Below are positions 2,111-15,652 of a stretch of DNA of 64,000 nt, one piece after another (position 1 is the first letter of the stretch; every line of letters begins with the position of its first letter). Position numbers and translations under genes: made by a program. A model generated the notes under the pieces. The model worked only from the letters and a program-made list of their open reading frames with translations, searched no databases and was not told the origin of the DNA. Source of the DNA: Nitrospirota bacterium (lineage in GTDB: Bacteria > Nitrospirota > UBA9217); contig CAWIYV010000008.1 of assembly GCA_963840455.1 (NCBI GenBank), positions 1-64,000 of the forward strand, read 5' to 3'.

Positions 2111-3469
2111 ATGAAAAGAAAGATAGTGGAAAGCTCGGTCCTGTTCGTGAGTATCCTGAAGTGGATATTCCTGGCGACCTGCGCGGGCATCCTTGTCGGC
2201 CTGTCTACAACGGTCTTTCTCAAGGCGCTCGGATTCAGCATAGCCGCAGCCTCGGGGTATCATTATTATTACCTGCTGTTGCCCGCTGCCTTGTTCCTGA
2301 CCGCCCTCATGGTCCGGTATCTGGCGCCGGATGCCGAAGGGCATGGAACGGAAAAGATCATCGAGGCGGTCCACCAGCGTTCCGGCAAGATCAGGCTTAT
2401 GGTGGTGCCGGTGAAACTGGTCGCTACGGTCATTACGATCGCCTTCGGCGGATCGGCGGGCAAGGAAGGCCCGGCAGCACAGATCGGTGCGGCCGTTTCG
2501 TCCGCCTTTTCGGACCTTCTGCGGTTCGACAGCAGCGACCGGAAGAAGCTGGTCATTTGCGGTATCAGCGCCGGCTTTGCCACGGTGTTCGGCACGCCCA
2601 TCGCCGGCGCAATCTTCGGCGTCGAGGTCCTGTTCGTCGGCGGCATGCTTTATGATGTCCTGCTTCCCTCGTTCGTGTCCGGCATCGTGGCCTTTCAGGT
2701 GTCCTCAGCCCTGGGGATCACCTATTTCCATGAGCCGCTCCAGTTCGTGCCGTTGTTCAGTAGCCTGTTCTTCATCAAGGTCTGCGGCGCGGGGATCTTT
2801 TTCGGTCTGTGCTCGCTCCTGATGATCGAAGTGCTCGGTCTTTTTGAGAAGATGAGCCGCCGGCTGACCATGTGGCCGCCCCTGAAAGCTCTTCTGGCAG
2901 GAGGCGTCCTGGTGCTGCTTACGTTCCTGTTCTCGACCCGCTATCTCGGGCTGGGCCTTGACACCATCAAAGATTCGCTCGAAGGAGGACAGGTCCCGGG
3001 AGGTGCATTTCTCCTGAAGATGCTCTTTACCGCTATTACGCTCGGTTTCGGCGGAAGCGGCGGGATCATTACGCCCATCTTCTTTGTCGGTTCGACGGCT
3101 GGGAACGCGTTCGGCAGCGTTCTCGGGTTCGACGTGTCGGTGTTCTCGGCGATCGGCATGGTCGCCCTGCTCGCAGGCGCGGCCAACACGCCCATCTCTT
3201 CGAGCATCATGGCCATCGAGCTGTTCGGGCCGGCCATCGGCCCCTATGCGGCCGTGGCCTGCGTCATCAGCTTTCTCATGACCGGCCACCGGAGCGTGTA
3301 CCCGAGCCAGGTGCTGTCGTTCACGAAATCAGCGTCCCTCTCGGTCCAGCATGGCAAAGAAATGAGGAATATCGGCGCCGTTGAATACCAGCCGCACCCG
3401 AAGAGCATGAGCACGGCCGTGATCAAGGGATTCAAGAAGGTCGTCGGAAAGAAGGACCGCGATGCATGA
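2111..3469 (+). CDS. ClC-family chloride channel/transporter
   Basis: GSAGKEGP gating motif, FGTPIAGAIFGVE, GGSGGIITP; many TM helices. Confidence 0.92.
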   Translation: MKRKIVESSVLFVSILKWIFLATCAGILVGLSTTVFLKALGFSIAAASGYHYYYLLLPAALFLTALMVRYLAPDAEGHGTEKIIEAVHQRSGKIRLMVVPVKLVATVITIAFGGSAGKEGPAAQIGAAVSSAFSDLLRFDSSDRKKLVICGISAGFATVFGTPIAGAIFGVEVLFVGGMLYDVLLPSFVSGIVAFQVSSALGITYFHEPLQFVPLFSSLFFIKVCGAGIFFGLCSLLMIEVLGLFEKMSRRLTMWPPLKALLAGGVLVLLTFLFSTRYLGLGLDTIKDSLEGGQVPGGAFLLKMLFTAITLGFGGSGGIITPIFFVGSTAGNAFGSVLGFDVSVFSAIGMVALLAGAANTPISSSIMAIELFGPAIGPYAAVACVISFLMTGHRSVYPSQVLSFTKSASLSVQHGKEMRNIGAVEYQPHPKSMSTAVIKGFKKVVGKKDRDA

Positions 3470-5637: not shown

Positions 5638-6921
5638 ATGGCAACAGTGCGACAGGGACCTATGACAAGTATTGTCCAGCGAAAAGAAATCGGCCAATTT
5701 CTTGATCAGACCGGATCGGCCGACATTGTCGTCGGCATTCCGAGCTATAACAACGCACGGACGATCGGCCACGTTGTCCGGGCCGTTCAGGCCGGCCTTG
5801 CGAAATACTTTCCCGGACACAAGGCGGTACTGGTGAATTCCGACGGCGGGTCTCGGGACGGGACCATGGACGTGGTGCGGAGCACGCGCATCGAGGACCA
5901 GGCGGCGATCCTCGTGCATCATCGGATCGACTCGGTCCCCGTCATCGCAACACCCTATGAGGGGATCCCGGGAAAGGGGAGCGCCTTCAAGGCGGTCTTC
6001 GAGATCGCCGACGCGCTGAACGCGAAGGCCTGCGCGGTCGTTGATTCGGACCTGCGGAGCATAACCCCGGAATGGGTGGAGCTTCTGCTCACACCCGTGC
6101 TTCAGGAGGAGACGGAATTTGTCGCTCCGCTGTATCACCGCCACAAGTTCGACGGTACGATCACGAACAGCATTGTCTATCCTCTGACACGGGCGCTCTA
6201 TGGCAGGCGCGTACGGCAGCCCATAGGCGGCGATTTCGGTTTTTCCGGCAAGCTTGCCCACTTCTATCTTTCGAAGGACGTATGGGAAACGGACGTGGCG
6301 CGGTTCGGCATCGACATCTGGATGACCACCACGGCCTTGGCGAACGGATTTACCGTCAGCCAGTCATTCCTCGGCGCGAAGATCCACGACACGAAAGACC
6401 CCGGCGCCGACCTCTCCGCAATGCTGTATCAGGTTGTGAGCGCGACGTTCGGGCTTATGCAGACCTACCCGGATGTATGGAAAAAGGTGCATGGCTCCGA
6501 ACCGGTCCGTACCTATGGCTTTCAGTATGCCGTGGGTCTCGAGCAGGTGAATGTGAACGTGGAGCGCATGCTCGGGATCTTTCGCGAGGGCATCAGGAAC
6601 CTTCGTGATATCTGGATCGCAGTTCTCGGTCAGGGCGATTTTGGAGAGGTCGAATCGCTCGGGACCGCCGGAGCCGATGCATTTCGTTTCCCGCGAGGAC
6701 TGTGGTCGCGGATCATCTATGATTACGCCCTTGCGTACCATCGGAAGAGTCTGCCTGTCGAACACCTGATCAAGTCCCTGACGCCGCTGTATCTTGGCCG
6801 CACCGCATCGTTCGTCCTGGAGATGCGTGATGCGGACCAGAGCGGCGCGGAAGGGGAAATTGAACAGCTCTGCGAGGAATTCGAGAGGAACAAGGATTAT
6901 TTGCTGAACAACTGGAAGTGA
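5638..6921 (+). CDS. Glycosyltransferase, glucosylglycerate synthase (single-step Ggs)-like
   Basis: VGIPSYNNA, NSDGGSRDGT, GKGSA, DSDLRSI, RQPIGGDF, FGIDIWMT; cluster context. Confidence 0.75.
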   Translation: MATVRQGPMTSIVQRKEIGQFLDQTGSADIVVGIPSYNNARTIGHVVRAVQAGLAKYFPGHKAVLVNSDGGSRDGTMDVVRSTRIEDQAAILVHHRIDSVPVIATPYEGIPGKGSAFKAVFEIADALNAKACAVVDSDLRSITPEWVELLLTPVLQEETEFVAPLYHRHKFDGTITNSIVYPLTRALYGRRVRQPIGGDFGFSGKLAHFYLSKDVWETDVARFGIDIWMTTTALANGFTVSQSFLGAKIHDTKDPGADLSAMLYQVVSATFGLMQTYPDVWKKVHGSEPVRTYGFQYAVGLEQVNVNVERMLGIFREGIRNLRDIWIAVLGQGDFGEVESLGTAGADAFRFPRGLWSRIIYDYALAYHRKSLPVEHLIKSLTPLYLGRTASFVLEMRDADQSGAEGEIEQLCEEFERNKDYLLNNWK

Positions 6922-6934
6922 AGGAGGGATAATC

Positions 6935-7633
6935 ATGCAAGACTTTCTGACGCTGGTGCTGGAACCATTCCGGGAGGTGTTTGCCGGGTTCACGCGATTC
7001 GCCCCGAACATGCTGGCGATGCTTACGATTCTGATCGGGGGGCTGGTGTTCGCCCGGATCGTTCGCGTGCTGCTCCGCAAGGCTCTGATCGCGCTCTCCT
7101 TCGATGCCTGGAGCGACCGCATGGGATTCACCGTCATGATGCGGAAGAGCGACTTTTGGGCGAAGCCCGCCGATGCGGTCGTTCGCGTCGTGTTCTGGTT
7201 TCTCATGATCTTTACGATCATGATCGGCCTGAGTGCGCTCAAGGTGCATGCCGTCGACAACCTGGTGGCCCAGTTCTTTCTCTATCTTCCGCGCGTTTTC
7301 TCGGCCGTTCTCATTCTGATCATCGGCTATGTAGCGGCCGGATTCCTGAGCAGGACGGTGTTGATCGTCCTTGTGAACAACGGGTATCACTACGCAAAAC
7401 TGCTGGCTGAGGCAGTCCGGTTGCTGCTGATTGTCCTGCTCCTCGCCATGGCGCTGGAACAACTCCAGGTCGCTCCCAATATCGTCGTTGCGGCGTTCTC
7501 GATCATCTTCGGCGGCATTGTCATAGCCATTGCCATCGCGTTCGGCGTCGGCGGGATCGAGGCCGCCCGCAGGATCATCGAAAAAGGGGCAGCCGAAAAA
7601 AGGGAAGGAAAGGATGATATGCAGCATCTTTAG
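6935..7633 (+). CDS. Membrane protein with MscS-associated TM-helix repeats
   Basis: Two repeats (FAPNMLAMLTILIGG / YLPRVFSAVLILIIG) and C-terminal AIAIAFGVGG. Confidence 0.65.
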   Translation: MQDFLTLVLEPFREVFAGFTRFAPNMLAMLTILIGGLVFARIVRVLLRKALIALSFDAWSDRMGFTVMMRKSDFWAKPADAVVRVVFWFLMIFTIMIGLSALKVHAVDNLVAQFFLYLPRVFSAVLILIIGYVAAGFLSRTVLIVLVNNGYHYAKLLAEAVRLLLIVLLLAMALEQLQVAPNIVVAAFSIIFGGIVIAIAIAFGVGGIEAARRIIEKGAAEKREGKDDMQHL

Positions 7634-7644
7634 GAGGATCTTCC

Positions 7645-8853
7645 ATGTCCGATTTCTATCAGACCGGCATCATCACCACGCTGCACCGGCTCGGCAGACC
7701 GTTGCTGGAGAGGATCGAGGGGGAGCTGCTGCAGTTCTCGAAAGCCCGTCCAATCGCGCTGGTCCTCCCCGCTCTGTATTCCGAGTTCGAGGGCCCGGCT
7801 ATGCCGAAGATCGTTGACGAGCTTTCGAAGGTGAAATACCTGTGCGAGATCGTGCTGGTTCTCGATAAGGCATCGGAAAAGGAGTTCCAGCGGGTACGGC
7901 AGTTCATGGCGCCCATTCCCGGAGACGTCAAGATCATTCACAACGACGGAAAGCGCATCCTTGAGATCTACGATACGTTCAAGCGCAACAGCCTAAGTGT
8001 TGGGGAGCAAGGCAAAGGACGATCGGCCTGGCTGGCCTACGGCTACGTCATCGCCAGCGGCAAGTGCGATGTGATCGCGCTCCATGACTGCGACATCGTG
8101 AACTATAGCAGGGAGCTGCTGGCCCGGTTGTGCTACCCTGTGGCGAATCCGAACCTGGATTACGTGTTCTGCAAGGGATTTTACAGCAGAGTGACGAACA
8201 AGATGCACGGCAGGGTCACGCGGCTCCTGGTCACCCCACTTATCCGCTCGCTCCGGAACCTCGGGGGCGAGCACCGGTTCCTCGCGTTCATCGACAGTTT
8301 CCGCTACCCTCTTGCCGGCGAATTCGCTATGCATACCGACATGGCGCGGGTGAATCGGATTCCTTGGGATTGGGGTCTCGAGGTAGGTTCCCTTGCCGAG
8401 GTATACCGGAACTACTCCCCCCGCCGGGTATGCCAGGTGGATATTGCAGACACGTACGAGCATAAACACCAGGCATTGTCTTCTGAGGACCCCGAGGAAG
8501 GGCTTATGAAAATGACGATCGACATCAGCAAGTCAATCTTCCGGACCCTTGCGTCGGAAGGGGTTGTTTTCTCCGACGGTTTTTTCAAATCGTTGTCTGT
8601 GGCCTACCTGCGGCTCGCCGAGGACACGCTCATGAAGTACGAGGCCGATGCGGCCATAAACGGTCTGGAGTTCGACCGGCACGACGAGGCCAAGGCCGTA
8701 GAATCCTTTGCGCGGGCCATGACCTTGGCGGCGGAGACATTCATGAAAAACCCCATGGGTACTCCGCTCATTCCCAACTGGAACCGCGTTACCTCGGCCA
8801 TACCGGGTATCCTCGAAATGCTTAAGAAAGCGGTTGATGAGGATAATAAGTAA
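7645..8853 (+). CDS. gpgS: Glucosyl-3-phosphoglycerate synthase
   Basis: MSDFYQTGIITTLH N-terminus, GKGRSAW, LHDCDI, GRVTRL, FRYPLAGEF, YEHKHQ; AGGAGG RBS. Confidence 0.8.
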   Translation: MSDFYQTGIITTLHRLGRPLLERIEGELLQFSKARPIALVLPALYSEFEGPAMPKIVDELSKVKYLCEIVLVLDKASEKEFQRVRQFMAPIPGDVKIIHNDGKRILEIYDTFKRNSLSVGEQGKGRSAWLAYGYVIASGKCDVIALHDCDIVNYSRELLARLCYPVANPNLDYVFCKGFYSRVTNKMHGRVTRLLVTPLIRSLRNLGGEHRFLAFIDSFRYPLAGEFAMHTDMARVNRIPWDWGLEVGSLAEVYRNYSPRRVCQVDIADTYEHKHQALSSEDPEEGLMKMTIDISKSIFRTLASEGVVFSDGFFKSLSVAYLRLAEDTLMKYEADAAINGLEFDRHDEAKAVESFARAMTLAAETFMKNPMGTPLIPNWNRVTSAIPGILEMLKKAVDEDNK

Positions 8854-9407
8854 GAGTGGAAAACCCGTGCTCCATTCAAGTGAACTCCGCTTCGCTCTGC
8901 TTACTAGCTGGCAGGCGCGACGCAGTGGTCGCCTTAGGCTGGTGCAGTACGCTCTTTTCCTACGAAAGGATTAAATAGTTAACGACTGATAATGACAAAG
9001 AACAGCGATACTTGATCAACACGAAAACCATCAGTTTCATATTCCCAGCAGAATACTAAAGGGGAGAGTCCTTCTTCAAACAATAATATTTATGGCCTGC
9101 TAAAGGCCATATATTTTATCCTAACTTCTAGCCTGCCTTCGCATTACCGCAGCCGATTAGCTTTTGTTGCTATTTGCGGTTGGGTCCTATCAGTGTTGTC
9201 CTAAGCGCCTTCTCCCGAACATTTATTATTCCCTGTTTTCTGACGGGAACCATTGCATAACCATTGCATCGTGCAATACCTTTTCCTCCTCACATTCACA
9301 TCATATCCTTCAACCAACTGAATGATATGCTCCGGTAGCTCTTCTTTACCCCCAAACCGGAGCGGCTCAATCTCATATATATCGCGAGGTTGCATTGATT
9401 CAGCCTT

Positions 9408-9425
9408 CTGGCATAGCGTATGCAA
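9408..9425 (+). promoter_or_regulatory. sigma54 (-24/-12) promoter
   Basis: CTGGCATAGCGTATGCAA = GG-N10-GC, close to the TGGCAC-N5-TTGCA consensus. Confidence 0.7.
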
Positions 9426-9551
9426 TTCATTTGTATACAAACGGTCGAGCGAGAGCTAGCCTTCACATTGCACCGGCCCAGCATCCAGAAAGGACATTGA
9501 AATGGCAGTACGAAGTAATCGTTCGAGTGAAATGCATTTTAAAGGAGGTGT

Positions 9552-9620
9552 ATGATCATGACGAGAGTAAGATCGGGCAAACAAACCATTGTTGCATGCA
9601 GGTGCCATAGCCCTTGCTAG
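9552..9620 (+). CDS. Putative 22-aa Cys-rich peptide MIMTRVRSGKQTIVACRCHSPC
   Basis: AAAGGAGGTG at 9541-9550 just before ATG 9552 and 7 nt before in-frame ATG 9558; downstream of a sigma54 motif. Confidence 0.4.
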   Translation: MIMTRVRSGKQTIVACRCHSPC

Positions 9621-9787
9621 ATCTAAGACCGGAGGGAAGGACCATCCGGTGAATGGAGAGTCCGAAGTGGGAGCGTTGCTCCTCCATAAGAGGCACGACA
9701 TTCCCGTGGCTTTTTCACAATTAACTTAAACGCTAATTCAGTATCCCGGTTCCAACCAATGAATAGCGCGAAAAAAAGGAGATCAAA

Positions 9788-10135
9788 ATGAAGACGCTCA
9801 TTTCTTTAGCAGCAGTAATGATGGTTGCCGTAACTTTCGGAACGGCATATGCGGATGATGATCAGATCCCGTATCCCGGGATGGCCATTGCATCCGTTGC
9901 TCATAGTACTTTCGATTGGAGTGCAAAGGGTCAGGCTGCGGCAGACCAGCTTGCTTCCTACACAAATGATGAGACGCCAGTGCTGAGCTCCAACAATGAG
10001 ATCGGCACCGCACTTTACCATGAGGCCTTCGAGGTCCATCAGACAGCTCTGGCAGCCAGGGCTAAAAAGGGCTCGGCAGCGGGAGGCATGGCGAAAGAGG
10101 ATGTGAACAGCAGCATTTTCAAACTTACCGAATAA
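9788..10135 (+). CDS. Hypothetical secreted protein
   Basis: AAGGAG RBS, Sec signal peptide ending TAYA, terminator downstream. Confidence 0.75.
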   Translation: MKTLISLAAVMMVAVTFGTAYADDDQIPYPGMAIASVAHSTFDWSAKGQAAADQLASYTNDETPVLSSNNEIGTALYHEAFEVHQTALAARAKKGSAAGGMAKEDVNSSIFKLTE

Positions 10136-10229
10136 GCCGGCTGATCTGATCTGCCGTAGTCGTTTTTTATACGATCGGATCCCGTGACAGGCCAAAACAA
10201 AAGAAACACAACAGATGATAATCTCATTG

Positions 10230-10260
10230 AGCAGGCCGGACCTCCGGCCTGCTTTTTTTC
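10230..10260 (+). terminator. Rho-independent terminator
   Basis: AGCAGGCCGGA-CC-TCCGGCCTGCT followed by a T-run. Confidence 0.8.
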
Positions 10261-10387
10261 CGTCATAACAAGTATGCTTTCGCTCAGGGTGGGAGATATG
10301 CTGCCATATTCCCATGCGTTTGCCGGAGCCGATCGTTAACACTTAGAGGCTCCAATATGCCGCCTGCAGCCGGACTCGGAACAAAAG

Positions 10388-10419
10388 AAAAGGCCGGTCA
10401 TGAGCTGACCGGCCTTTTC
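10388..10419 (-). terminator. Terminator (bidirectional-type) after the DUF922 gene
   Basis: AAAAGGCCGGTCA-TGAGC-TGACCGGCCTTTT. Confidence 0.75.
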
Positions 10420-10439
10420 CGAGATCGAGCGCTGAATGA

Positions 10440-11078
10440 TCAGGGAAAGAACGCTCCTTGCACGATGCCGTGGCGGGTAGCCTCATCATACGCCTTCGAC
10501 TCTGCATCCAGCCAGTTTAACCGCTCATGGCACAAGGATTGGATTATGCGGTCAAGCTCCGCACAGGTAGGCGCCGGCGGCAGTTCGGCCACTGCCCGGG
10601 AAAGCTCGGTCGTGGCTTTCACGACCATGTCGCGATGTCCATTTTCATGCGCCACAAGGCTTTTCATATAATTGTCCCATTTAGCCGCTAGGGACTGCGG
10701 AACGTCGCCGGTGTGCACCCATTTGGGATAGCGGGAGCTTATGTCGACAGTGGCCCTGAAGGAATTGACTGAGCAAGTTTGAGGGGCTCGGTCATGGTCA
10801 TAATCCCATTTCACATGCCAGCTGGTCTCGGAATCGTAGGTTTTTCCATCCTTCCACCTGCAACCGCAACGGCACATCTCGCTTCGCAGCTGGTCTTCGC
10901 TATCCCCTTTGATCTCATAGTATTCATATTTTTCGGAGACGATGGGGGGGAGAATGCTTTTCGCTTGTGGGAAACGGGTCGTTTTATCCAGGCTTGCGAT
11001 GTCAACGGCATTTTCGGCGGCGAACACAGAGGCAGCAATGGCCAGAGGAAGAAAGAATATTAAGAGCCTTTTTATCAT
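10440..11078 (-). CDS. Secreted Zn-dependent protease-like protein (DUF922-like)
   Basis: Signal peptide (SVFA), HENGH zincin motif, YDEATRHG C-terminal motif. Confidence 0.75.
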   Translation of the reverse strand: MIKRLLIFFLPLAIAASVFAAENAVDIASLDKTTRFPQAKSILPPIVSEKYEYYEIKGDSEDQLRSEMCRCGCRWKDGKTYDSETSWHVKWDYDHDRAPQTCSVNSFRATVDISSRYPKWVHTGDVPQSLAAKWDNYMKSLVAHENGHRDMVVKATTELSRAVAELPPAPTCAELDRIIQSLCHERLNWLDAESKAYDEATRHGIVQGAFFP

Positions 11079-11529
11079 GTTCAAGCTTCTCACGATACTT
11101 CGTAGAGCCGGCTTGCACCAACTCGCCGATGGTTTTGGTGGACGATGATAAGGTCCCTTATCTATCAAACGACTTCCTCTATTACTAGATTATCTGAATC
11201 AAGAAAGTTGAGTCGCTTAAAAGACAACGTATTAAATTAAAACAATTATACGACTAGCGGCGTGGGGTTTCAAGCAGGAAGTAATGAAATCGTTCTTATG
11301 CTGTACCTCCGGCCTAGATCTTATTGATCTGGTTGCCGGTGTGGTAAGAGTGACGTTTCTTGCGTACGCTGCCAAGGCCAGCGTCCTTCGACTTCCATAA
11401 TGTCGCCTGCGATGAGGAACTCGAGACCCAAAAGGATAGCCCGTCCCAAGTCTTGCCGGTAAAGTCGGTAAGATTTGCCGGTCTCCCCATGTCGTTTTAC
11501 AAGGAAGCGAACGGTGGCAAGGAGCGCTA

Positions 11530-11870
11530 GGGGGTCTTTCTACGACTGTTTTTTTGAAGCTGCTCTGCCTCAGGATTGCCGCGACAAGCGGGTATCGCTA
11601 CTATTTTTTTATGCTCCCAGCCGCGTTGTTCCTGAGCGCTTTGGTCGTGAAATATCTCGTTTCTGATGCGCAAGGTCACGGGACGGAAAAGATCATTGAG
11701 GCGGTTCATAAAGCATTCCGGCAGGATCAAGGCGGCAGTCGTACCGGTCAAACTCGTCGCCACGATCATTACGATCGCATTCGGCAGATCGGCAGGGAAG
11801 GAAGGCCCGGCTACACAGATCGGCGCAGCTGTAACGTCGACCGTATCCAATCTTCTAAGGTTCGATAATT
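11530..11870 (+). pseudogene. Degenerate fragment of a ClC paralog
   Basis: Translates to LPAALFLSALVVKYL..GHGTEKIIEAVH / VPVKLVATIITIAFGRSAGKEGP, matching about 2195-2530; no start, frameshifted, truncated. Confidence 0.85.
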
Positions 11871-12228
11871 CTCCCTCGTGAAATGACGAACGAAGGCTTT
11901 CGCACAATACGCAGTTTCTGAAATCATTCCCAGAGCGCGCGTGAATCAGTCGGTAGTAGATATTTGTTCGATAGCAGATAGTGTGAAGCGGAGTTGATGT
12001 GTATCCTTTGCCGGTGAACAGCTTCCTGTGCATGGCATTTCCGACGCATCTGGCAAAAAATATCTTAACGAACAGAAGGATAAAATTTACACATAAAATG
12101 CGAAGGTTGTTACAATTGGTAGCAGAACGTGTTGCCTAGAAATGGTATTGAATCTGAGAATAGTATTTTCAGAGTCCGTAAGTGTTTAATAGAATGGTAC
12201 TTACCAAGAAAGTATTTCGTGATTGATT

Positions 12229-12245
12229 TTGGCATATAAAATGCT
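12229..12245 (+). promoter_or_regulatory. sigma54 (-24/-12) promoter
   Basis: TTGGCATATAAAATGCT = GG-N10-GC. Confidence 0.7.
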
Positions 12246-12284
12246 ATAAATTACGTCGTTAACATAACCGGATGTAACCGGTTA

Positions 12285-12977
12285 ATCCTAGGTGGAGACT
12301 GTCAGAAAGGAATAGATGCGTGAGGTAGGAAAAAAACACGTCTGCTTCCCTTTTCCATGGGGCGCGGAGATCGAGAGGAGAAACTGATTATGGTATTGCT
12401 TTTCCTCGGACTTCCGTCAGCCTCATCGGCTTCGAAGGCGTGTTCCCTTTTTCCGCAACGGGAATCCGTCTTCCTCCCTCTGTTCGTTCATTCCTCTCTG
12501 ATAAGATCCCGACAGGAAACCGATTCCGCGCTCAATCCCTGACCGCAAGGGGCAGTGCAGGTGCGGCGCTGTGCCGCGCGACGATGTTCGATGATTCAGC
12601 CCGACCCTGTCGGGTATCCTAGGTGGAGACTGTCAGAAAGGAATAGATGCGTGAGGTAAGGAAAAAACACGTCTGCTTTCCCCTTCCATGGGGCGGAGAT
12701 CGAGAGGATGAGATATTGCTTTTCCTCGGACTTCCGTCAGCCTCATCGGCTTCGAAGGCGTGTTCCCTTTTTCCGCAACGGGAATCCGTCTTCCTCCCTC
12801 TGTTCGTTCATTCCTCTCTGATAAGATCCCGACAGGAAACCGATTCCGCGCTCAATCCCTGACCGCAAGGGCAGTGCAGGTGCGACGCTGTGCCGCGCGA
12901 CGATATTCGATGATTCAGCCCGACCCTGTCGGGTATCCTGGGTGGAGACTGTCAGAAAGGACTGGACGTGCGAGGTG
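12285..12977 (+). repeat. Tandem repeat: two diverged units (331 and 319 bp) plus a ~43-bp partial third unit; candidate structured leader RNA
   Basis: ATCCT(A/G)GGTGGAGACTGTCAGAAAGGA begins at 12285, 12616 and 12935. Confidence 0.9.
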
Positions 12978-12981
12978 TCTT

Positions 12982-13557
12982 ATGACGGAAGAAATAATTG
13001 CCATACAAAGGGAAGAAGTGGCCGAGAAAAATTATGCGCAAGTTCTTGCCGAAATTAATGACAACTTGCGCAGAGTATTCCAGGCGGTCCAGGAGCACTC
13101 GAAGCGTGTGGAACGGGAGACCGGGTTGACCGGTCCCCAGGCCTGGACGATACGGGTTATTGCGGATAACGAGCCCATCAAGATCTCCGACATTGCCCGC
13201 CGAATGTATCTGCATGTGGCCACCGTAGTCGGCATCATCGACCGCCTCGAGATGCGGGATTTTGTTCGACGCACTCGCGACCACAAGGACCGGCGCGTCG
13301 TCTACGTCATGCTGACAGCGGAGGGGAGGGCGTTGATTGCCAATGCACCTCAGGTGGCGCAAAGCCTGCTCCTTTCCGGCTTGGAGGTGCTGCCGAACCG
13401 GAAATTGAAGACCGTTCATGCGGGGATTGAAATACTGGCGAGTATTTTGAGCGTCCAGAATCTGGCCCCACAAATGCTGATCACCGAGGAAACCTGCGGG
13501 CCAATGACATCCTCCAATACGCATGAGAAGGCAGCTGCGAGCGTTCGCAGAGCATAA
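12982..13557 (+). CDS. MarR-family transcriptional regulator
   Basis: GLTGPQ, VVGIIDRLE..FVRRTRDHKDRRVVYVMLTAEG winged-helix signature; GAGGTG RBS. Confidence 0.9.
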   Translation: MTEEIIAIQREEVAEKNYAQVLAEINDNLRRVFQAVQEHSKRVERETGLTGPQAWTIRVIADNEPIKISDIARRMYLHVATVVGIIDRLEMRDFVRRTRDHKDRRVVYVMLTAEGRALIANAPQVAQSLLLSGLEVLPNRKLKTVHAGIEILASILSVQNLAPQMLITEETCGPMTSSNTHEKAAASVRRA

Positions 13558-13624
13558 GGGCCTATGGTTTGAACATCATTGTTTGTCAGAAAATACCAAA
13601 CCATGTGTAATCACGGAAGTAAAC

Positions 13625-13639
13625 GTTACCAATGGTAAC
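13625..13639. promoter_or_regulatory. Palindromic putative operator
   Basis: GTTACC-AAT-GGTAAC in the AT-rich region upstream of the acetate cluster; extra AATGGTAAC half-site near 13697. Confidence 0.4.
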
Positions 13640-13750
13640 ATAAAAATGACTGTTAAATTAATGATATAAATACATAACGTGCTGATTAGTAATTGAAATG
13701 GTAACTGGCATTTTAATTGCTGTTGTTTTATTTTCATAAGGTAAAGACCG

Positions 13751-15652
13751 ATGATTTTAGAAGACGTCATCAAATTCTTGCAGAATGTTCCTCCCTTTCA
13801 GTTCCTCGACGGGGCGTCCTTGGCCGACGTCGCGAAGGACCTGTCCATGGAGTTCTATCCCAAGAACACGGTCATCCTGAAGCAGGACGGACCGCCGAGC
13901 GACTCTCTTCGGATCGTCAAGAAGGGCGGCGTGCGGATCTCCGTCAAGTCGGGAACCGGAGAGGACGTGGTCATTGACTTCCGGGGCGAGGGTGACACCT
14001 TCGGCATCGTTTCCCTCATGAGCAAGGACCGGCAGAAGACGACCATCGTCGCCATTGACGACACCATCTGCTACCTCCTGAATAAGGAACATCTGTACCG
14101 GATCATCGAATCGCATCCCATGTTCACGGAGTACCTCCTCCAGTCCCATTTCACCAAGTACATCGACAAGACCTACCGTGAGATGCACAACAAGAGCCTG
14201 TTCTATGGCAGCAGCGACCACCTGTTGTTCACGACTCAGATCGGGGATATGGCCACGAAGGACATCATCGCCGTCTGTGAGAAAGCAACCATCCGTGAGG
14301 CGGCCGAGGAAATGGTGCGGAACCGCATCAGCTCCGTCATCGTCTTTAACGCCGACGGGCAGCCGACCGGCATCGTGACGGACCGGGACATGCGGGAGAA
14401 GGTGGTGGCGCGGGCCCGGAATGTGAACGATTCGGTGAAGGACATCATGTCGCTCCCCCTGGTGCGCGTGGACGTAAAGGACTACTGCTTCGAAGCCGTC
14501 CTCCGTATGATCAAGCACAACATCCACCACATCCTGGTGATCAAGGAGGGGACGCTCAAGGGCGTACTGACGAACCACGACCTCATGCTGCTCCAGGGAT
14601 CGTCACCGCTGTCCTTCGCCAAGGACCTCGAGAGCCAGCAGACCATCGAGGGACTGATCCCCGTATCAGTGAAGATCAACCGGGTGGTGGGCCTTCTGCT
14701 GAAGGAAGGCGCCCGGGCGAGCAACATCACCAAGATCATCACGGAACTGAACGACCGGCTAGTGCGGAAGGTGCTGGAGATCGCCGAGAAGCAGTTCGGA
14801 CAGCCGCCAGTGGCCTACTGCTGGGTGTCCCTCGGGAGCGAGGGCAGGAAAGAACAGACCTTCAAGACCGACCAGGACAATGCCGTCATCTACGCCGATC
14901 CGGAAACAACGATGCAGGAAGCGGAGATCCGGCGTTACTTCACGGAATTCACCGGGTTCGTGAAGGACGGCCTCCTGCGGTGCGGCTTCCCGCCCTGCCC
15001 CGCGGACTACATGCCGACCAATCCGAAGTGGTGCCAGCCGCTCGGGGTGTGGAAAAAATACATCTCCGACTGGGTGTCCACGCCTACGCCGGACGCGCTC
15101 TTGAACGCGCTCACCTTCTTCGATTTCCGTCCGTTGCACGGCGAGAACGCGCTGGCTGAGGACCTGAGGACCTACCTTATCGGCGCCCTGAAGGACCAGA
15201 AGGTCTTTCTGGGGCACCTTGCCAACATGGCGATCAAGAACTCGCCTCCCATCGGGTTCTTCAAGTCATTTGTCGTGGAGAAGGACGGCGAGCACAAGAA
15301 CGAGTTGAACCTCAAGGTCAAGGGGGTCGCCCCGCTCGTGGACATCATACGGCTTTTCGCGCTCGAGCGCGGCATCCGCGAGACCTCGACGCTGGAACGC
15401 ATCGCTGCGCTCCGTGCAAGCCATACGATCGTTCAGGAATATGCCGACGAGTTCGAACACGCATTCGAGTTCATCATGCTCCTGCGGATCCATCACCAGT
15501 TCTCCCAGTTGAGCGTCGGCGGGGCGCCGGACAACTTCATCAACCCCAACAAGCTGAGCAACCTTGAGAAAAGGTCCATCAAGGACGCCTTCCATCTCAT
15601 CACCACGGTGCAGGACCTGATCATCGAACGATACAAGTCGCTGATCTGGTGA
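13751..15652 (+). CDS. cNMP-binding / CBS-pair / DUF294 nucleotidyltransferase-like signalling protein
   Basis: N-terminal cNMP domain, GIVTDRD CBS motif, LGSEGRKEQTFKTDQDNA. Confidence 0.92.
   Translation: MILEDVIKFLQNVPPFQFLDGASLADVAKDLSMEFYPKNTVILKQDGPPSDSLRIVKKGGVRISVKSGTGEDVVIDFRGEGDTFGIVSLMSKDRQKTTIVAIDDTICYLLNKEHLYRIIESHPMFTEYLLQSHFTKYIDKTYREMHNKSLFYGSSDHLLFTTQIGDMATKDIIAVCEKATIREAAEEMVRNRISSVIVFNADGQPTGIVTDRDMREKVVARARNVNDSVKDIMSLPLVRVDVKDYCFEAVLRMIKHNIHHILVIKEGTLKGVLTNHDLMLLQGSSPLSFAKDLESQQTIEGLIPVSVKINRVVGLLLKEGARASNITKIITELNDRLVRKVLEIAEKQFGQPPVAYCWVSLGSEGRKEQTFKTDQDNAVIYADPETTMQEAEIRRYFTEFTGFVKDGLLRCGFPPCPADYMPTNPKWCQPLGVWKKYISDWVSTPTPDALLNALTFFDFRPLHGENALAEDLRTYLIGALKDQKVFLGHLANMAIKNSPPIGFFKSFVVEKDGEHKNELNLKVKGVAPLVDIIRLFALERGIRETSTLERIAALRASHTIVQEYADEFEHAFEFIMLLRIHHQFSQLSVGGAPDNFINPNKLSNLEKRSIKDAFHLITTVQDLIIERYKSLIW

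Follow-up and report, generated by a model that had tools for sequence, protein, structure and literature searches.

Translational attenuators with a leader open reading frame (ORF) and competing anti-Shine-Dalgarno (anti-SD) and anti-anti-SD strands are represented by the ermC and cat type. The Na+-I and Li+-I riboswitches have nhaD among their linked genes, and passages of the study describing them report that before nhaD they stand in tandem and, in one case, as a triplet (White et al. 2022, PMC9646797). The Na+-I riboswitch (DUF1646 motif) is presented in a second article as an element in the 5' untranslated region (5'-UTR) of genes that serve Na+ transport and adaptation to osmotic conditions (PMC9337991), and the main text of that article makes no mention of nhaD, actP, CBS, MarR or Nitrospir-. 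Regulatory RNAs of the Nitrospirota are poorly charted. The subject of the present analysis is the region upstream of a marR gene (positions 12229-12984) in a 64,000-nt stretch of DNA from a Nitrospirota bacterium (GTDB lineage Bacteria; Nitrospirota; UBA9217; assembly GCA_963840455.1, contig CAWIYV010000008.1, positions 1 to 64,000, forward strand), the whole of which is called the window. The region is tentatively read as a marR 5' leader transcribed from a sigma54-type promoter and composed of two tandem copies of a module and a third module head, in which conserved cores and complementary pyrimidine tracts would compete and so relay the occupancy of the first core, in cis, to the marR ribosome-binding site (RBS); taken together, the two parts of this reading are put somewhat below an even chance. 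The module head is probably an undescribed gene-control element, present three times before marR. No description of the element was found in literature on Nitrospirae riboswitch-candidate motifs, MarR tandem leaders or DUF294-actP, and the available passages on DUF294 and actP treat only DUF485/ActP.

Within the region a sigma54-type -24/-12 site is followed by a tandem array and then by marR (Table 1). The pattern TGGCAYN5WTGCW has three matches in the window against 0.22 expected, a number reached by 0 of 100 shuffles; judged from sequence, the site has the GG and GC elements of a sigma54-dependent promoter at the -24/-12 spacing, and rpoN is encoded in the source genome. Direct-repeat search and BLAST gave an array of 2.1 copies, and BLAST found no further repeat-like sequence anywhere in the source genome (4.03 Mb); the array was not reported by Tandem Repeats Finder. 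An earlier note, made from the letters of this DNA, had described a -24/-12 motif, tandem units of 331 and 319 bp and a partial third copy supplying the marR RBS, as well as two small upstream ORFs (uORFs) opened by the first two heads and an indel mostly within the loop of the GAGGA..TTCCTC stem as the largest difference between the units, and each point was borne out; in the alignment the indel removes the top and the loop of the GAGGA...UUCCUC stem. Copy number rests on assemblies, as short-read contigs end at the repeat with none spanning the array, and in four read runs positions 12656-12900 are without cover. The unit DNA had a single match in 40 relatives, a 23-nt chance match (E 0.0038). 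Hairpin 1 is the predicted 5' end of the transcript, and a contig from an RNA library of a relative, ~92% identical over 12279-12496, is a weak hint that the leader is transcribed. An alternative marR start at the in-frame ATG at 12910, which would run across hairpin 3 and core 3, was rejected by eye from the frame of a marR homologue locus (L064), which differs in the middle of this stretch.

Each repeat head is made up of a 6-bp hairpin, a linker of 8-9 nt and an invariant, purine-rich core of 27 nt (ATCYTAGGTGGAGACTGTCAGAAAGGA), and by the sequence comparisons that follow the head belongs to a conserved Nitrospirota 5'-UTR element. The 18-mer GGAGACTGTCAGAAAGGA, common to all three heads, was searched in one genome per species and was present at 34 genome loci, where about 17 would be expected by chance in 596 Gb by our own arithmetic. 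Half of these loci (17/34) share the hairpin, linker and core context on the sense strand shortly 5' of a gene, and the other 17 are without it; the labels of the 17 context loci are Nitrospirae, Nitrospirota, Thermodesulfovibrio, Thermodesulfovibrionales or Sulfobium in 16 cases and only 'bacterium' in one. A 21-nt degenerate pattern gave 20 more metagenome loci, all with the element context, and together with two further covariance model (CM) matches the total is 48 element instances, or 37 clusters at 97% identity, all of them on the sense strand and just upstream of a gene. The consensus core is AUCYUAGGKGGAGACUGUCAGAAAGGA, preceded by a hairpin of 5-6 bp and a linker of 8-9 nt; 4 nt beyond the core there is often an AUG. 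Outside the window at least 34 instances have the identical core, a conservation that is overstated because the instance search demanded a near-exact core; the unbiased parts are the flanking positions, the hairpin and two variants found only by the CM. The element is present in one to two copies per positive genome and in three copies in the source genome, all at the marR leader. It was not found in a CM search of 140 relatives of the source genome (strict filters, 37 candidates scored per genome), which is not proof of absence, and among 40 relatives of one positive genome it was found in three, in one case as a weak match inside a gene.

Covariation was assessed on 37 CM-aligned instances from the window and 31 loci, with eight near-identical duplicate loci omitted. 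Hairpin cells were paired in 96.5% of cases against 81% in shuffles and 24-57% in slid controls, compensatory changes were present in 5 of the 6 pairs, and the covariation score was reached by 0 of 500 shuffles; a second alignment of instances gave a similar result. The core is extremely conserved in sequence, has no covariation and contains a short quasi-palindrome, CTGTCAG. RNAalifold detected no local helix, pseudoknot or second helix around the core besides the hairpin, which makes a single-stranded core probable; pairing of the linker with the post-core sequence, which would close the core in a local helix, was inconsistent by eye and likewise absent in RNAalifold. The 3' end of the core (AGAAAGGA) is complementary to the 3' end of 16S rRNA (...CACCUCCUUUCU / ...CCUCCUUUCU, read in one motif-bearing genome), and a longer pairing of the core with 16S rRNA was not convincing. 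A scan of window positions 11000-14500 with Rfam 15, whose models include Na+-I/DUF1646, nhaA-I, T-box and known leaders, at E up to 10 returned six matches, none within 12229-12984 and all far below the gathering score, and the 17 element-bearing genome loci returned 0 matches at E up to 1. The earlier note had matched the leader to no known family, in which it was right, and had called the unit unrecognised, which stands with respect to Rfam but not in the sense of an orphan, the head being a conserved Nitrospirota element; it is the head and not the 330-nt unit that constitutes the element, because the head also stands in short leaders without the body. The check that the note had proposed, on homologues and covariation, turned out favourably for both, the covariation being that of part of the structure, the hairpin.

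If the invariant 27 bp were a DNA operator (roadblock) just downstream of the start site, present in three copies, with incidental RNA features, the extreme conservation without covariation and the quasi-palindrome would be accounted for, but not the asymmetry of the site, its constant placement on the sense strand, its fixed spacing to a covarying hairpin or its SD-like end with an AUG often following. The adjacent MarR is in addition an unlikely factor for such a site, with orthologues in 0 of 5 motif-bearing genomes, and the operator explanation is very unlikely as a whole. Candidates for a factor that recognises the core were sought in motif-bearing genomes. MarR itself is unlikely, the search at E up to 1e-5 being a weak negative as it had no positive control. 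CsrA is also unlikely: the element resembles CsrA/RsmA leaders in its two GGA motifs, of which one belongs to the SD and the other lies 12 nt away, but no CsrA gene (PF02599) was found in any of 5 motif-bearing genomes, including the 100%-complete source genome, with positive controls in E. coli, B. subtilis and T. maritima. A trans-acting small RNA with a Watson-Crick complement of the core was sought on either strand of five motif-bearing genomes and of the source genome, allowing up to 3 mismatches, and only known instances and chance matches came up.

The genes behind the element were counted by cluster (37 in total), with family searches on one representative of each type and the remaining members assigned by eye from their N-termini. 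A protein of 141-142 aa without a family accounts for 13/37 clusters and an NhaD-type Na+/H+ antiporter for 10 (representative NF038006, 167.7 bits against a cut-off of 80), followed by heads at marR loci (6 clusters, from 5 loci), an operon beginning with DUF294 (a cyclic nucleotide monophosphate (cNMP)-CBS-nucleotidyltransferase protein; 4 clusters), and one cluster each for a Yip1-domain protein, a CBS-domain protein, an exported protein and an unknown gene. A sigma54-type site was seen by eye 5' of the hairpin in three of four checked DUF294 leaders (L029, L039, L048) and in L063, and the distance from this site to the 18-mer is 46 nt in L048 and 48 nt in the window, a near-equal spacing which supports a leader start site just 5' of hairpin 1. 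The long nhaD leaders contain the core and a uORF beginning MFEV..., and ~34 nt separate an anti-core tract from the start codon (z of the duplex -1.6 to -2.4). In the short nhaD leaders (L015, L022, L032, L046) an internal deletion has removed uORF and tract, and hairpin and core are all that is left.

The 141-142-aa protein (MGLFGKLFGK...), the commonest gene behind the element (L021, L024, L037, L040, L057, L060, L066-L069, L077, L078, L080, L071), matched no Pfam or NCBIfam family and only hypothetical proteins in the Atlas, and its AlphaFold model, a confident one (predicted local distance difference test score 89.4), had no fold match (Foldseek best E 9e-3, VIA-align best Z 4.4). The copy of this gene in the source genome (C4:1002-1425) has an apparent frameshift and no element upstream. 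In L057 (G145:C98), L063 and L080 two elements ~540 nt apart face away from each other, one towards the 141-aa gene, where it is the variant GGAGTC...AAAGG(G/A), and the other towards a sigma54-promoted DUF294 operon. The source genome has three more DUF294 paralogues, 44-68% identical (C2:7373-9253, C3:14112-15992, C9:423439-425316), near which a genome-wide motif search placed no element.

The company of the element raises the question of a sensor. Its position before nhaD in 10 of 37 clusters, and before an operon with a sodium:solute symporter (actP) and CBS/cNMP-domain proteins, would suit an aptamer of a new riboswitch class, with an alkali cation or an osmotic-stress signal as possible ligand, and the marR leader would then be a tandem or triple riboswitch, much as passages of PMC9646797 link nhaD to the Na+-I and Li+-I classes in tandem and, once, triple form. 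This is distinctly improbable: no Rfam model was matched, those of the Na+-I and Li+-I classes included, a single short hairpin covaries with no aptamer-like fold, pseudoknot or second helix in RNAalifold, the hairpin loop is not conserved among the window copies, and the window hairpins have no terminator-like U tract behind them.

The uORFs begin after the core with M-x-E-V-x-K...C, a start that recurs in a distant marR leader (L071) and in the nhaD leaders, and their translation is putative. uORF1 has the SD-like AGAAAGGA before it and lies upstream of marR, as in a leader-ORF attenuator; the aligned spacing from SD to AUG is short. In four nhaD leaders (L020, L043, L044, L079) the uORF has 16-17 codons (MFEVKGK.INC...) and ends in a hairpin containing the stop codon, with compensatory changes (GGAUAUC/GAUAUCC against GGAUUUC/GAAAUCC). 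Third-position changes in the nhaD uORFs fall within a hairpin, and these apparently synonymous changes may thus be structural. It is scarcely probable that each unit is a small RNA in its own right or codes for a functional small protein (a uORF peptide): the recurring start is in favour of the latter, but uORF2 is frameshifted, many element instances have no AUG after the core, and no promoter or terminator, sigma70-like promoters included, was predicted inside the units. Nothing supports the pair of small RNAs that the earlier note had offered as one possibility. A marR promoter within the last unit, which the note had named as an observation that would speak against its reading, was likewise not among the predictions for sigma70-like sites.

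Leaders before marR in metagenome contigs were compared with that of the window. In L072 (marR 98.8% identical) one full unit and the 3' two-thirds of another precede the head and marR, with a tandem spacing of 331 nt, and L075 (marR 76% identical in nt) has the same layout with heads 333 nt apart; at least two tandem units before marR are thus present in these two independent contigs. The contig of L064 (marR 84% identical) begins in a unit tail. L071/L065 (marR 66% identical) has a single unit with hairpin, core, a uORF beginning MGEVGK..., ~330 nt and its own SD. By the layouts of L072, L075 and L071, tandem units are shared by two lineages and by assemblies that are independent of one another, and the leader predates the duplication. 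The marR RBS of L071 (UAGGAGGAGAC) resembles by eye the core (UAGGUGGAGAC), a mimicry by which one tract can choose between RBS and core. MarR homologues of 51-54% identity were found in 8 of 40 relatives, and their upstream regions are short and unrelated to the leader.

In each unit a pyrimidine tract ~160 nt downstream of the core is able to pair with any of the cores. In the minimum free energy (MFE) fold of a unit, the head sequence UGUCAGAAAGGAAU pairs with AUUCCUCUCUGAUA at 13 of 14 positions, with one G-U pair and one A-C mismatch, and AUCCCGACAGG (12506-12516) pairs with CCUGUCGGGUAU around a one-base bulge in competition with the hairpin at 12600-12614; both pairings were as the earlier note had given them. 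Tract 1 pairs with core 1 when a single unit is folded. In the full leader (folded as 12257-13015, MFE -281.6 kcal/mol), tract 1 is bound by core 3 together with the marR SD and tract 2 by core 2, and core 1 has no partner; positions 12971-12976, most of the marR SD, have an ensemble unpaired probability of 0.11. The occlusion of the marR RBS that the note had anticipated is therefore seen in silico, through pairing of the SD with an upstream pyrimidine tract. When any one core is blocked, the other two occupy both tracts (MFE -269.6 kcal/mol with core 2 blocked, -272.3 with core 1 and -259.7 with core 3), and with core 3 blocked tract 1 pairs with core 2. The computed folds thus comprise mutually exclusive helices, one of which hides the marR RBS, as in an attenuator. 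RNAalifold of five units retained the long-range core-tract helix in the consensus, and the helix is largely retained in the distant L071, where it has two adjacent compensatory pairs; compensatory changes are present in 16 of the 94 consensus pairs.

In the model proposed from these folds, the module would consist of a small hairpin and a single-stranded core ending in the SD-like motif, to which units 1 and 2 would add an AUG opening a short uORF. With three cores for two tracts, the pairings are mutually exclusive. If core 1 is free during transcription, each tract would be taken by the core of its own unit, leaving core 3 and the marR SD open. With core 1 instead taken up by an initiating ribosome or a core-recognising factor, tract 1 would pass to core 2 and tract 2 to core 3, and tract 2 on core 3 would close the marR RBS; the state of the first core would in this manner be relayed to marR translation. 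The logic would be left intact by gain or loss of a unit, and variation in copy number would thereby be explained. Where transcription starts, that the leader switches, in which direction it regulates and what kind of signal it takes are inferred; the repeat, the conserved element with its covarying hairpin, the complementarity and the tandem units of other organisms are shown.

Several observations weigh against this relay. Between the window and L075 the head and domain 1 are 98% identical (196/200), the marR-proximal tail 74% and the coding sequence 76%, the marR-proximal unit tails of L075 and L064 are just 74-75% identical to the window, and the L071 leader is conserved no better than the coding sequence (65.7 vs 66.3%). 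Uniform constraint on the whole unit would fit such uneven identity less well than recent recombination or gene conversion in the distal part. In the oriented contig of L075 (reverse strand) a sharp fall in identity to the window, inside the marR-proximal unit at about position 405 (98% upstream of it, 74-76% downstream), suggests a recombination breakpoint within the leader. The compensatory changes in the long helix come mostly from the single distant L071 sequence, the alignment of which is uncertain. Folding energy of the unit is modestly better than that of shuffles on the + strand (z -1.83, equalled by 4 of 100 shuffles), with z -2.86 for the - strand; the core-tract duplex cannot be told from that of shuffled leaders in the window units (z -0.5) and has z ~0 in several other leaders, and purine-rich and pyrimidine-rich stretches pair readily from composition alone. 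Unit 2 carries a frameshifted uORF and several helix-breaking changes and may be decaying. The core is fully conserved in the short nhaD leaders without uORF and tract, so its primary function does not need the tract; the core would have a function of its own, most simply as a binding site for ribosome, protein or ligand.

Part of this would be expected if only the hairpin and core were functional, for example as a binding site setting translation or stability of the gene behind it, and the tandem units were a neutral by-product of unequal crossing-over between element copies on either side of an ancestral single leader, with no regulatory role for the extra unit. To the retained core of the short leaders, the broken pairs and frameshift of unit 2 and the weak duplex statistics can be added that 2.1 copies are what recombination between flanking head copies would give, and that unit composition differs between the near-identical strains of the window and L072. 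This explanation has a real, if minor, chance of being correct; it is opposed by the tandem state in two lineages whose marR genes differ by 24%, and by the pyrimidine tract, which no unit has lost and which the single-unit L071 leader also keeps.

The same-genus genome G003 (DUF294 97% identical) is without window positions 8847-13566, a 4.7-kb block that includes marR, which is a further point against the relay. Its synteny runs from window 6638-8846 through 340 nt to 13567 onward; the block, which holds small ORFs, a DUF922 gene, a ClC remnant, the leader and marR, is either an insertion in the window genome or a deletion in G003. Together with a distal unit that is 98% identical between organisms with 76% identical marR, the missing block could point to units that are a mobile or selfish repeat, or a recent transfer, standing before marR by chance, but the unit body was found at marR loci only and has no second copy in the source genome, viral contigs gave 0 matches to the core pattern, terminal inverted repeats and a transposase are missing, and L071 has a diverged single-unit homologue at the same place. 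The probability of such a mobile origin or transfer is remote.

A wider proposal, held to be unlikely, is that hairpin and invariant core are a new class of cis-regulatory RNA in Thermodesulfovibrio-type Nitrospirota, with a small cation/osmotic/carboxylate regulon (nhaD, the DUF294-actP operon, the 141-aa protein and marR), which would respond directly to a small ligand or ion, or else to a dedicated RNA-binding factor, and would be wired at marR as a copy-number-independent relay of three cores and two anti-cores. If the element is a sensor, the regulon would join an Na+/H+ antiporter, an acetate-permease operon with CBS/cNMP signalling proteins, the 141-aa protein and a MarR regulator, and would give a handle on ion and osmotic sensing by these uncultured anaerobes. 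The layout of three cores and two tracts, if true, would be a simple natural example of a relay that passes the state of its first site down the leader, and would show that regulation can survive changes of copy number by unequal crossing-over. Being short and well defined, the element is directly testable in vitro and in reporters.

A DUF294-exonuclease-DUF485-actP operon follows marR from 13751 onward, behind the second sigma54-type site. An inverted repeat (GTTACCAATGGTAAC, 13625-13639) similar to that upstream of the leader lies ~70 bp upstream of this second site and is conserved in L072, L075 and G003; GTTACAATTGGTAGC and GTTACCAATGGTAAC may be sites of one enhancer-binding protein co-regulating marR and the DUF294-actP operon. 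The third match to the sigma54 pattern (TGGCATAGCGTATGCA, 9409-9424, + strand) stands among short overlapping ORFs with no obvious gene. At 11554-11868 (+ strand) an ORF fragment with ClC chloride-channel motifs (GHGTEKIIEAVH, GKEGP) and no Pfam match looks like the remnant of a ClC gene; an intact ClC gene is present at 2111-3469, and ClC genes also adjoin MarR homologues in two relatives (L012, L013).

Table 1 Features of the marR leader and its surroundings in the window
Feature	Position	Strand	Details
Imperfect inverted repeat GTTACAATTGGTAGC	12109-12123	.	~110 bp upstream of the -24/-12 site
Sigma54-type -24/-12 promoter TGGCATATAAAATGCT	12230-12245	+	Pattern TGGCAYN5WTGCW
Hairpin 1 (AACCGG-ATGTAA-CCGGTT)	12266-12283	+	Sequence unlike hairpins 2 and 3, pairing retained
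Core 1 ATCCTAGGTGGAGACTGTCAGAAAGGA	12285-12311	+	CM match 64.6 bits
Unit 1	12289-12619	+	331 nt; direct-repeat search and BLAST of source genome
uORF1	12316-12387	+	23 codons, MREVGKKHVCFPFPWGAEIERRN and stop
Pyrimidine tract 1 (anti-core) CTTCCTCCCTCTGTTCGTTCATTCCTCTCTGATA	12470-12503	+	Complementary to core
Tail (domain 2) of unit 1	12505-12619	+	Holds GCGGCGC..GCCGCGC hairpin and hairpin 2
Hairpin 2	12600-12614	+	Within unit 1 tail
Core 2	12616-12642	+	CM match 72.6 bits
Unit 2	12620-12938	+	319 nt, 94% identical to unit 1, E 4e-142
uORF2	12647-12862	+	71 aa; start as uORF1, then frameshift through 2-nt deletion
Pyrimidine tract 2	12790-12823	+	Identical to tract 1 (direct repeat, offset 320)
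Hairpin 3 (CCCGAC-CCT-GTCGGG)	12919-12933	+	From sequence
Core 3	12935-12961	+	CM match 64.9 bits; with marR SD, the partial third copy
Partial third copy (36-nt head)	12941-12976	+	86% identity; supplies marR RBS
marR SD GAGGTG	12972-12977	+	In third head, ahead of ATG at 12982
marR gene	12982-13557	+	191 aa; Pfam MarR PF01047, E 5.7e-16
Second sigma54-type promoter TGGCATTTTAATTGCT	13706-13721	+	Fits pattern; conserved in L072, L075 and G003

By analogy, the nearest described systems are the Na+-I and Li+-I riboswitches in gene association and the anti-SD attenuators in predicted mechanism. Like the ermC and cat attenuators, the marR leader has a short uORF preceded by an SD and, further downstream, a pyrimidine strand for which an upstream purine strand and the RBS of the gene would be alternative partners. 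It differs from them in that its core of 27 nt is invariant across gene families and genera and persists without uORF or tract, in that the module is duplicated, and in that no stalling peptide or inducing drug is known for it. As in the tandem Li+-I and Na+-I riboswitches, in the passages describing them, full regulatory units stand in series in one 5' leader (at marR two full units and a third head, with a putative sensor role), and nhaD and genes of ion or osmotic type are involved; the marR leader, in contrast, has no Rfam match and no terminator after each unit, its aptamer is putative, and its units share interchangeable core and anti-core strands that are predicted to interact rather than to act independently. 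The single Na+-I riboswitch is likewise a 5'-UTR element of genes of Na+-transport and osmotic type, but the present element is different in sequence and architecture and had no cmscan match to it at E up to 10 in the window region or up to 1 at the 17 loci. From both of its nearest counterparts the element would be set apart by an invariant single-stranded core in place of a folded aptamer, by the persistence of this core where the switching parts are lost, and by the interchangeable strands of its duplicated units.

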